Shown: piece after piece, positions 28,337-30,718 of the stretch | Numbering within the stretch: position 1 is the stretch's first letter | How the letters are laid out: each line of letters opens with the position of its first letter | DNA from: Stegostoma tigrinum | Taxonomy: Eukaryota | DNA: 64,000 bases | Reading direction: 5' to 3' | NCBI RefSeq assembly: GCF_030684315.1 | Contig: NC_081360.1 | Span: 44,153,424 to 44,217,423, forward strand | Made by a program: the position numbers and the translations under genes | The notes under the pieces: generated by a model | The model's input: the letters and a program-made list of their open reading frames with translations, nothing else | What the model was told of the DNA's origin: nothing | The model's database searches: none

Positions 28337-29769
28337 GTAAGGAAAGTATTGGTCGCAAACCTCTGGTAAGCTAATATGTCATGGTTGCTTTGTATGAAAC
28401 TAGTTACGGTTTATAAAATTTTTCTGGGAGGCAGTGTGTCTTGCTGCGGGTTAAACAAATAACATTATTTCTAATCCATTCTTAATTTTGGTTTGCATGT
28501 TTTACATTTGTGCAATCATACTTACTGCATAATACTTTTATTAAGATATCTTGATTAAAGGCTGTTTTGTAATGCAGCCGATTCTTAGCACCATTTTCTA
28601 ACTTTCATCATTTATTTGAGATCGAATATATCTTAAATGTCTTATTTTGTATTGTGAAATTAGAGATAATACAACTCTTATGTTTTATTTGTATTACTTG
28701 GTGTATCATAGGTATATTATGATTTTCTTTTTTGTGAAAATATACATGGATGTGTTTCAATCACAGCAGCCTTCTTTTCATTTAATTAAATAATGGTTAT
28801 CTCTGTTTTTCAAAACCGTATAACTTAAACTTGTCTAAAAATAATCTTGATCTGAATTAAACATCTCTATCTTAACATGATGAGAACTGTCAAATGAAAA
28901 GTTCATAACAAAACACATGGAATGCAGTCCAGCTAATTATAACATTATTGTGCAATTAGGATTGGACATCATTTGTTTCATTTGGATTTAAGTTCATATG
29001 TAAGACCAATGAGTTGTAAATAACATTGATTGCAAATGCAGATGACCTCATGGACATATGCCATGAGGCGGCCACAGAGATCAGTTTCAAAGAAGGCAAG
29101 GACTGATTATTAAATTCTCCTGGGTATAAGGAGTTCAGGAAAGAAAGGGAAGGAAGAAGGAATACAGTAGTGATGAAGGAGAGACATTTCAGTGCTGGAA
29201 TGAGAAGATGTACCATTGAGACCAAAGAGAGAATTTATTTGGCTAGAGCTAAGGAACTAAAGTAAATATGTAATTACATTGTTTGGTTTAGTCTATAAGC
29301 CTTCAACTATTTGGAAAAGTGTCAAGAGAAAACAATGAGTTATCACAGGACCCATTAATTACCAACTTAAAAACTGAAGGGCAGAGGGGGACAGGAGTTT
29401 CAAGAATGTGTAGTTGAAAAATTTCTACAATAGCTTGTTTCCAGTCCAAAGTGGTAGGATGTATTGCACAACCTGCTTCTTGGGAATGAAGGGAGCCAAT
29501 TGGATCAAATATCAGTACAGTAATTCATAGGGCCAGTAGTATTCCATCATAAAGTGTGCGTTGGCTATGAGAAAGGATAGAAAGCTTGTGTAAGAATAAG
29601 TAACTGGGGGATGCAACTTCAACATGGCTAAGAATGGATCTGGTCCAAATAAGTTAGAATCAAGGATTAGAGGTGACAAATGTACCTGAACAATGGGCAT
29701 GAGGGCAAAGCTCACATATGGACAAGGTATATTTCTTGCAGATTTAAGGTCAACAAACAAATCCAGAAC

Positions 29770-29870
29770 AAAAACAAAGTTGCTGGAAAAGCTTAGCAGG
29801 TCTGGCAGCACCTGTGAAGGAAAAAAATCAGAGTTAACGTTTCGGGTCTGGTGACCCTTCTTCAGAACTC
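29770..29870 (-). mobile_element. 101-bp Penelope-type insertion with 13-bp TSD, nested in the CR1 remnant
   Basis: ACAAATCCAGAAC at 29757-29769 and 29871-29883. The body is shared with elements at 37324 and 40174. Confidence 0.8.
29831..29870 (-). ncRNA. minimal type-I hammerhead ribozyme motif
   Basis: Minus strand reads GAGUU-CUGAAGA-A-GGGUC(ACCA)GACCC-GAAA-CG-UU-AACUC: core boxes, 5-bp stem I, 5-bp stem II, palindromic ACGU stem III. Confidence 0.7.
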
Positions 29871-30718
29871 ACAAATCCAGAACTCCCTGGACAAAGAAAG
29901 AGGTAGAGATTAAGATGAAGCAGAGTGCTAAATATAAATACAGTATGGACTGTGTGAGAATGGTTAGATAAAGGATCCATTAAAACATTCAAAAGCAAAT
30001 TAGATCTCTAATTGTAAAGGACAATTTTGCAGGGCTATGAGGAAAAGGCTTGAAGTGAATTGCTTCCTCAGAAAGCTAGCACAGACATAATACCTCAGAC
30101 GGCCTCTTGTGCTGTAACCACTGTAGACAAATATGTGACATTTACTGCTCTAAATTAGCTGCAGTGATCTTAAATGACCATAAATGGCCTGGGGATGGGA
30201 AAACTGGCCTTAGTTTTCTCCGCCCTTCATTTAATCAAGAAGGGAATCAGTAAAGTGAACATCTGTCCATTATTCCCACCCATATCCCCAATTCCCGAAG
30301 ATTGGAGAAATTAAATTCTGCTCTTAATGTTTCTTTTATCCTTCGCTTATCTCTGTTGATTTAATTTAATTTTACAGCAGAAAAATTGTATTTTGCAAAA
30401 AGAATATCTGGAAGTGAGATGCTAAGTAGTTATTATGTGAAGGATTCTGTTGATTACATAGATATTTAAAACAATGCACATCTGACTCTAAAAAGTTTCA
30501 CTTTTCAATTTAGTAAATAAAATATTGTCTTTACCTTTCTTGAAGTAAGTTGAAAAATTAAAGGATTCAACATTTTCTTAATCATCAATAATATCTTAAT
30601 TAATATTGATTAATATCTTATGTGTTACATCTTTATATAAGTGTCTTAGTGATATTCTCTTCATGTAAATGCCTATCCTTTGGCATACCTTAAAATGTTG
30701 CTTCAAACCTTCCTTCAG

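Follow-up and report, generated by a model that had tools for sequence, protein, structure and literature searches.

A 101-bp hammerhead-bearing insert in a titin-like intron of Stegostoma tigrinum as a likely copy of the 5' end of a Penelope-like element

We analysed a window of 64,000 nucleotides from the shark Stegostoma tigrinum (NC_081360.1, positions 44,153,424 to 44,217,423), which holds a titin-like gene on the plus strand. Its exons encode Ig I-set domains and its best PDB match is titin (E 4e-107), for which reasons a protocadherin cluster was rejected as the host. Giant open frames of 1702, 1178 and 1321 aa (7697-25251 on the plus strand, and 10577-11634) encode Ig I-set domains and hold an internal tandem repeat, consistent with large titin exons. 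A predicted intron of this gene (28366..30718, plus strand, GT and AG boundaries recognized by eye) carries, in antisense orientation, an inserted unit of 101 bp at 29770..29870 on the minus strand. In the numbering used here +1 is the base at 29870, and the unit spans +1 to +101. It is flanked by a 13-bp repeat, whose 5' copy lies at 29871..29883 and whose 3' copy lies at 29757..29769. This repeat is exact and, as the initial annotation had proposed, is a real target-site duplication (TSD), and the insert was retroposed. The first 4 bases of the 3' copy are also the element's continuation, and the 3' border is therefore uncertain by 4 nt. The match to the continuation extends to 9 of the first 11 bases, and no empty allele was seen, as no joint spanning the insert occurred in 4 sequencing runs (one of which, fitting both insert junctions perfectly, is possibly the source sample). 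Both observations would suit a repeat that is element sequence or chance, the insert then being the remnant of a longer copy. This is very improbable, however, because the two repeat copies agree at all 13 bp and lie directly against either end of the insert, both ends are the family's preferred ends, and duplications of such size are common in the family.

The insert opens with a predicted minimal type-I hammerhead (29831..29870, minus strand). Stem I (29870-29866 with 29835-29831) is followed by the core CUGAAGA (29865-29859), an extra A between core and stem II (29858), a 5-bp stem II (29857-29853 with 29848-29844), the GAAA box (29843-29840) and a palindromic ACGU (29840-29837), and the cut is predicted after GUU, between 29836 and 29835. 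Every feature on which the initial annotation had based an intact core is present in the sequence, and so are all those of a Penelope-type minimal hammerhead, namely CUGANGA, GAAA, an NUH triplet, helices I and II, the extra base and the palindrome. The annotated 5-bp stem I is found in this copy but is not a family trait. Its outermost pair relies on the G at 29870 (+1), which replaces the family's C; since 48 of 54 ORF-linked copies carry C there, the family stem I has 4 bp, and the perfect fifth pair is an accident of the window copy. The motif is not a chance occurrence, because a descriptor of the full minimal hammerhead matches 38 times in 91 evenly spaced genome stretches (910 kb in total) and never in any of five shuffles; its single match within the window is the copy at 29870-29831. 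A 29-nt core pattern likewise has 2181 exact genome matches, against 0 for the reversed control. The predicted fold of the 50-nt region yields stems I and II. Fold stability alone is not significant (z -1.54, with 16 of 200 shuffles folding equally well), and an Rfam scan of 27000-33000 with E up to 5 matched none of the hammerhead families.

Related insertions are abundant. A second hammerhead insertion, of subfamily B1 and with inverted arms, lies nearby at 27553-27745 (plus strand) within an 11-bp duplication (27542-27552 and 27746-27756). This insertion has the same orientation as the titin-like gene and a mismatch in stem II. By duplicating its target, it also doubled a branch-point-like motif located there, about 20 nt ahead of the acceptor at 27772. 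Profile and BLAST also placed nested or inverted arms of subfamilies A, A2 and B at 40190-40525, 37319-37499 and 46213-46313; overall the window holds nine arms by profile plus the one at 46213 by BLAST. A profile search of the 910 kb returned 228 arms of several subfamilies (about 250 per Mb), 47 of which are close to the window copy, and extrapolation gives some 800,000 arms in the genome, with 165,000 close to the window copy. Contig depth mirrors this copy number, being about a hundredfold higher for the unit than for the ORF start (15 runs, contigs), and bears on neither strand, ends nor cleavage. The core is intact in only 6 of the 40 close arms that reach it, as neutral decay predicts, and the window hammerhead looks like a survivor of such decay.

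By sequence comparison, the 101-base insert is +1 to +101 of a very common autonomous Penelope-like element (PLE) with reverse transcriptase (RT) and GIY-YIG domains, that is, part of its 5' UTR with the hammerhead, and the parent probably belongs to the Neptune clade. The parent is about 3.1 kb long. Among 30 loci found with the ORF 5' end, 24 have the unit joined to the ORF start, with the ATG near +175, and in all 20 long loci fetched the unit sits about 250 nt past the ORF stop. Copies found with the 101-mer extend beyond the unit on both sides, and in long copies the ORF end is located upstream of the unit. Because it both adjoins the ORF start and trails the ORF stop, the unit is the autonomous element's 5' end, repeated 3' within the pLTR, which makes the hammerhead a component of a PLE pLTR. 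The ORF contains RT motifs, a CX4CxxC linker joining RT and EN (in locus L175 and in the homologs, and shared by Nematis, PMC8557442) and, at its C terminus, a GIY-YIG-type domain. Matches to RVT_1 (E 1.3e-5) and GIY-YIG (E 0.002), read from broken copies, are both below the Pfam cut-offs. The ORF has 55 RT-bearing homologs of 759-1130 aa, with a best identity of 48%. No intact ORF was found among 150 scored of 224255 candidates, the longest open frame being 509 aa, and copies diverge by about 9-10% from the majority sequence. With pLTRs at both ends, inverted copies, a one-sided 30-40 bp tail and TSDs all present, the autonomous Penelope with RT, GIY-YIG and matching pLTRs that the initial annotation had envisaged is found in this genome as broken copies. 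An upstream ORF of about 30 codons at +58 precedes the main ATG (loci L215 and L199), and in the window copy a GTG variant at +58 abolishes its start.

That one end of the insert coincides with stem I was noted before, and this turns out to hold across the whole family. Among 30 loci anchored on stem II, 26 passed a motif filter, and in 23 of these the 5' end lies 0-5 nt before core C3, with one more at 7 nt and two extending into the pLTR. Short copies (n=40) match the upstream sequence with an identity of 0.25 at the sixth base before the core, which climbs to 0.85 at the last base and is at background one base before the wall C, compared with 0.83-0.99 in long copies (n=81). Consistent positions were obtained for arms in the 910 kb, 137 of 228 of which start at -3 to +8, for the ORF-start loci, where 10 of 30 begin at -1 to +5 like short copies (BLAST ends), and for loose contig ends, which cluster at 29868-29869 in 4 of 4 runs. 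The wall is ragged, spreading over about 5 nt. About 30 nt ahead of it, long copies of subfamilies A, B1 and B2/B3 carry an AT-rich box (majority of 71/215 copies for A, 41/81 for B1 and, by eye, 14/22 for B2/B3), within flanks that are otherwise C-rich and divergent. At the wall base, A and B2 fit a pyrimidine-A initiator and B1 a TCT-like motif, judged against the initiator and TCT consensus motifs. The simplest reading of box and initiator-like motif is that the wall at stem I is a likely transcription start.

A wall produced from the same parent, with the same internal priming, by RNA processing, a splice acceptor or a polymerase-stopping structure is unlikely. Its raggedness would be in keeping with such an origin, the wall lies at CAG with a pyrimidine tract and AG before it in subfamily A, and PLEs carry 5' UTR introns, including one in D. 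virilis whose end was mapped to helix I, at its 5' end (PMC4209133). But no upstream exon is common to the short copies, as the fall of their identity to background indicates; they often retain the C, A and G, bases that would be lost on splicing; and in the B subfamilies the box is accompanied by a comparable wall but no AG.

The first base itself varies. Across 15280 exact matches +1 is C in 10426, G in 2173 and A or T in 2681, so that G is over-represented when set against A plus T together. The G of the window copy may be a cap copy, stutter, flank copy or mutation. A cap-derived G was considered and is not established, as many of 30 G loci reflect stutter or an inverted arm; CT precedes the G in 9 of these 30, as expected from either, and the junctions of TSD-positive solos at +1 are mixed. 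The window G may also have been copied from the target, because the flank holds the element's first 8 bases as well. In loci L233, L235, L243 and L272 the first 6-8 element bases are repeated at the 5' junction, which suggests repeated template re-annealing at the RNA end.

For the other end we examined 120 loci in four sets of 30, one anchored on stem II and the others chosen for C, for G and for A/T at +1, a selection that over-samples short copies. With 4 duplicates dropped, the 116 loci comprise 51 solo copies, 48 inverted pairs and 17 long copies. Their 3' ends peak near +100 and +140 (49 at 88-115 and 43 at 126-150 of 116). The 101 bp given in the initial annotation fits the insert, which stops at the first preferred 3' end, but it is only one of two common lengths. 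Inverted pairs join one length with the other almost without exception: of the 48, 34 were classifiable, with 33 short plus long, 1 short plus short and 0 long plus long (p 4e-9 for 33/34 against one half). Duplication scores of at least 8 were obtained for 19/51 solo copies and 24/48 inverted pairs, versus 8/400 mismatched flanks for each. The paired 3' ends and the duplications fit the nicking of two strands with two internal start sites described for an anole element (PMC11167929), and the pairing also fits the one-sided tail known from PMC8557442. The window copy is a short-end solo without the upstream AT-rich box and, lying antisense in a host intron, is probably inert. Some copies are composite (L203, L211, L217, L219 and others of L193-L221). 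They consist of a full 5' end with 400-1400 nt of ORF and then a second +1 to +100/+140 unit without upstream pLTR, as if RT had run off the 5' end and then jumped to an internal point of the RNA.

The initial annotation had regarded the unit as a separate non-autonomous, retrozyme-like family. This is not supported, as the unit is collinear with the autonomous 5' end and has one hammerhead and no tandem repeat. A broader version, in which a SINE- or retrozyme-like family is transcribed from solos and mobilised in trans by the Penelope protein, is quite unlikely, even though several observations agree with it. Short copies outnumber long ones, and 1655 of the 15280 exact matches keep 7 upstream bases exactly, a share that mutational decay would lift to perhaps a quarter by our estimate. 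The nearest neighbour is ORF-linked in 15/87 short copies versus 39% expected, and several columns differ in allele frequency, both comparisons being between sets selected differently (resemblance to two given copies for the ORF-linked set, exact patterns for the short one); this confounded result leans towards a short self-propagating sub-lineage. A preprint reports that retrozymes derive from PLEs (bioRxiv 10.64898/2026.07.22.740005), and an internal promoter in solo copies is possible because Drosophila Penelope has a TATA-less internal one (PMC2377424). Against these stand, besides the collinearity and the few intact cores, the two lengths, the ragged ends, and the lack of a tandem array at the window site and of an upstream box. 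In addition, three variants, the window copy's among them, occur in long and short copies selected alike (4/13 vs 32/82, 8/15 vs 32/89 and 3/11 vs 3/78, long vs short, all small numbers). On this comparison of sequences, short copies as by-products of the autonomous element are favoured over a family of their own, though not proven.

Subfamilies keep the ribozyme core, and stem changes are mostly pairing-compatible: in stem I U-A becomes C-G (16 sequences of one subfamily), in stem II G-C becomes A-U (6 sequences), and there is a change of U-A to U-G (36). The stem alignment comprised the window copy together with 92 arms out of 117 listed (151 were extracted; gapped and surplus rows were omitted). 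In these 93 sequences stem II is 86% paired and stem I 56%, and double changes occupy 38 cells versus 19.6 in shuffled data (3/500), but they represent about two subfamily events and other measures are at chance; formal covariation support is weak. Judged from their ends, insertions are copied from uncut RNA and seldom start at the cut site. Of 7780 listed copies, the first 100 were read by eye and none begins at the cut, and at most 1 of 132 arms does. There are 73 exact inverted junctions that restart at the cut, about 0.5% of 15280, counted without a matched control and confounded because stem-I complementarity gives 4 nt of microhomology. In the B subfamilies 3 distinct cut-site junctions occur among 162 arms, 2 of them centred on a palindrome. 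The window copy is antisense, so the host pre-mRNA would contain no ribozyme from it. In published work, minimal hammerheads are poor cleavers even as dimers (PMC4209133) or depend on the element's protein (PMC11167929).

The hammerhead of the window insert is an expected part of a known element type. Minimal hammerheads of PLEs (Cervera and De la Pena 2014, PMC4209133) are likewise type I with a helix I of 4-5 bp and no helix III, have an extra base before helix II, a G10.1-C11.1 pair and a palindromic 15.2-16.2, and occur as thousands of single dispersed copies and as opposite-strand pairs. The shark sequences differ in having 5 bp in helix II (4 in the B subfamilies, where stem I has only 2 bp). 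That paper ascribes single copies to truncated PLEs, without mapping their ends, and two of its supplement files contain no shark name. The shark element also resembles EN+ PLEs of the Neptune/Nematis type (Craig et al. 2021, PMC8557442; Arkhipova et al. 2013, PMC3846280) in its pLTR with an adjacent inverted truncated copy, a tail of 30-40 bp at one end only, TSDs (8-10 bp there) and a CX2-5CxxC linker, and it differs in that most shark insertions have shrunk to 100-250 bp. A putative TATA box plus initiator is described for Adineta Pen2a (PMC8557442 / PMC3846280). Arkhipova et al. (PMC3846280) explained head-to-head palindromes by self-priming on antisense RNA, whereas the paired 3' ends in the shark fit two primings on sense RNA. 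Non-LTR retrozymes (Cervera and De la Pena 2020, PMC7229834; Li et al. 2026 preprint) are similarly small and non-coding, with a type I hammerhead, a relation to PLE pLTRs and longer TSDs. They are, however, tandem repeats of 150-450 bp with a hammerhead per unit and a circular RNA, whereas the window insert is a single copy between its TSDs, collinear with an autonomous element and bearing the ribozyme at one margin. Among 30 loci, one had a duplicated inverted unit (L150).

The closest mechanistic parallel is PAc, an anole Poseidon element (Frangieh et al. 2024, PMC11167929). In vitro, both strands are cut and extended, two internal RT start sites define the tail, and uncut RNA serves as the template; the PAc protein is predicted to be a dimer. 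PAc belongs to another clade, and its ORF begins inside the hammerhead, unlike the shark ORF at about +175. In vitro its two strands showed no difference in start site, whereas the shark genomic pairs use one each. That paper mentions neither TATA, transcription start nor solo. Only Neptune and Poseidon are reported as vertebrate PLEs in a preprint (bioRxiv 10.64898/2026.07.22.740005), the supplements of which cover one chondrichthyan and may list the shark family. Shark-directed literature searches, conducted apart from Repbase, Dfam and subscription journals, gave no description of the family among the matches listed, and it is very likely catalogued there. A search of the same literature, again apart from subscription journals, gave no paper linking a Penelope-like hammerhead with a transcription start site and a TATA box.

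Our preferred explanation, to which we assign a probability of roughly 70%, is that the insert was formed when RT started internally about 100 nt into uncut parent RNA and ran off the 5' end at the predicted transcription start. A Pol II start at the wall would follow from the AT-rich box near -30 together with the initiator-like motif. The endonuclease would nick both strands about 10-15 bp apart, each nick would prime at a different one of the two sites (+100 or +140), and a second priming with little or no product would leave solos such as the window copy. Within the parent RNA, the predicted hammerhead would lie in the first 40 nt, and cutting would remove the cap. The more specific proposal of a capped-mRNA hammerhead behind a TATA-type promoter, with a dimeric RT-endonuclease that always primes two strands at +100 and +140, is an even bet.

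The value of these data lies in the copy ends, which bear on how the inverted pLTR and the tail of PLEs form and on the role of the hammerhead, questions raised in PMC8557442. The strict short-plus-long pairing of arms and the start at stem I provide two sharp tests for the existing in vitro system. If the specific proposal is true, hundreds of thousands of stubs would record the transcription start, both priming sites and the nick spacing of the element. The stub origin would then explain the single minimal hammerheads that litter animal genomes, and the ribozyme would be a decapping switch rather than a step in template making.
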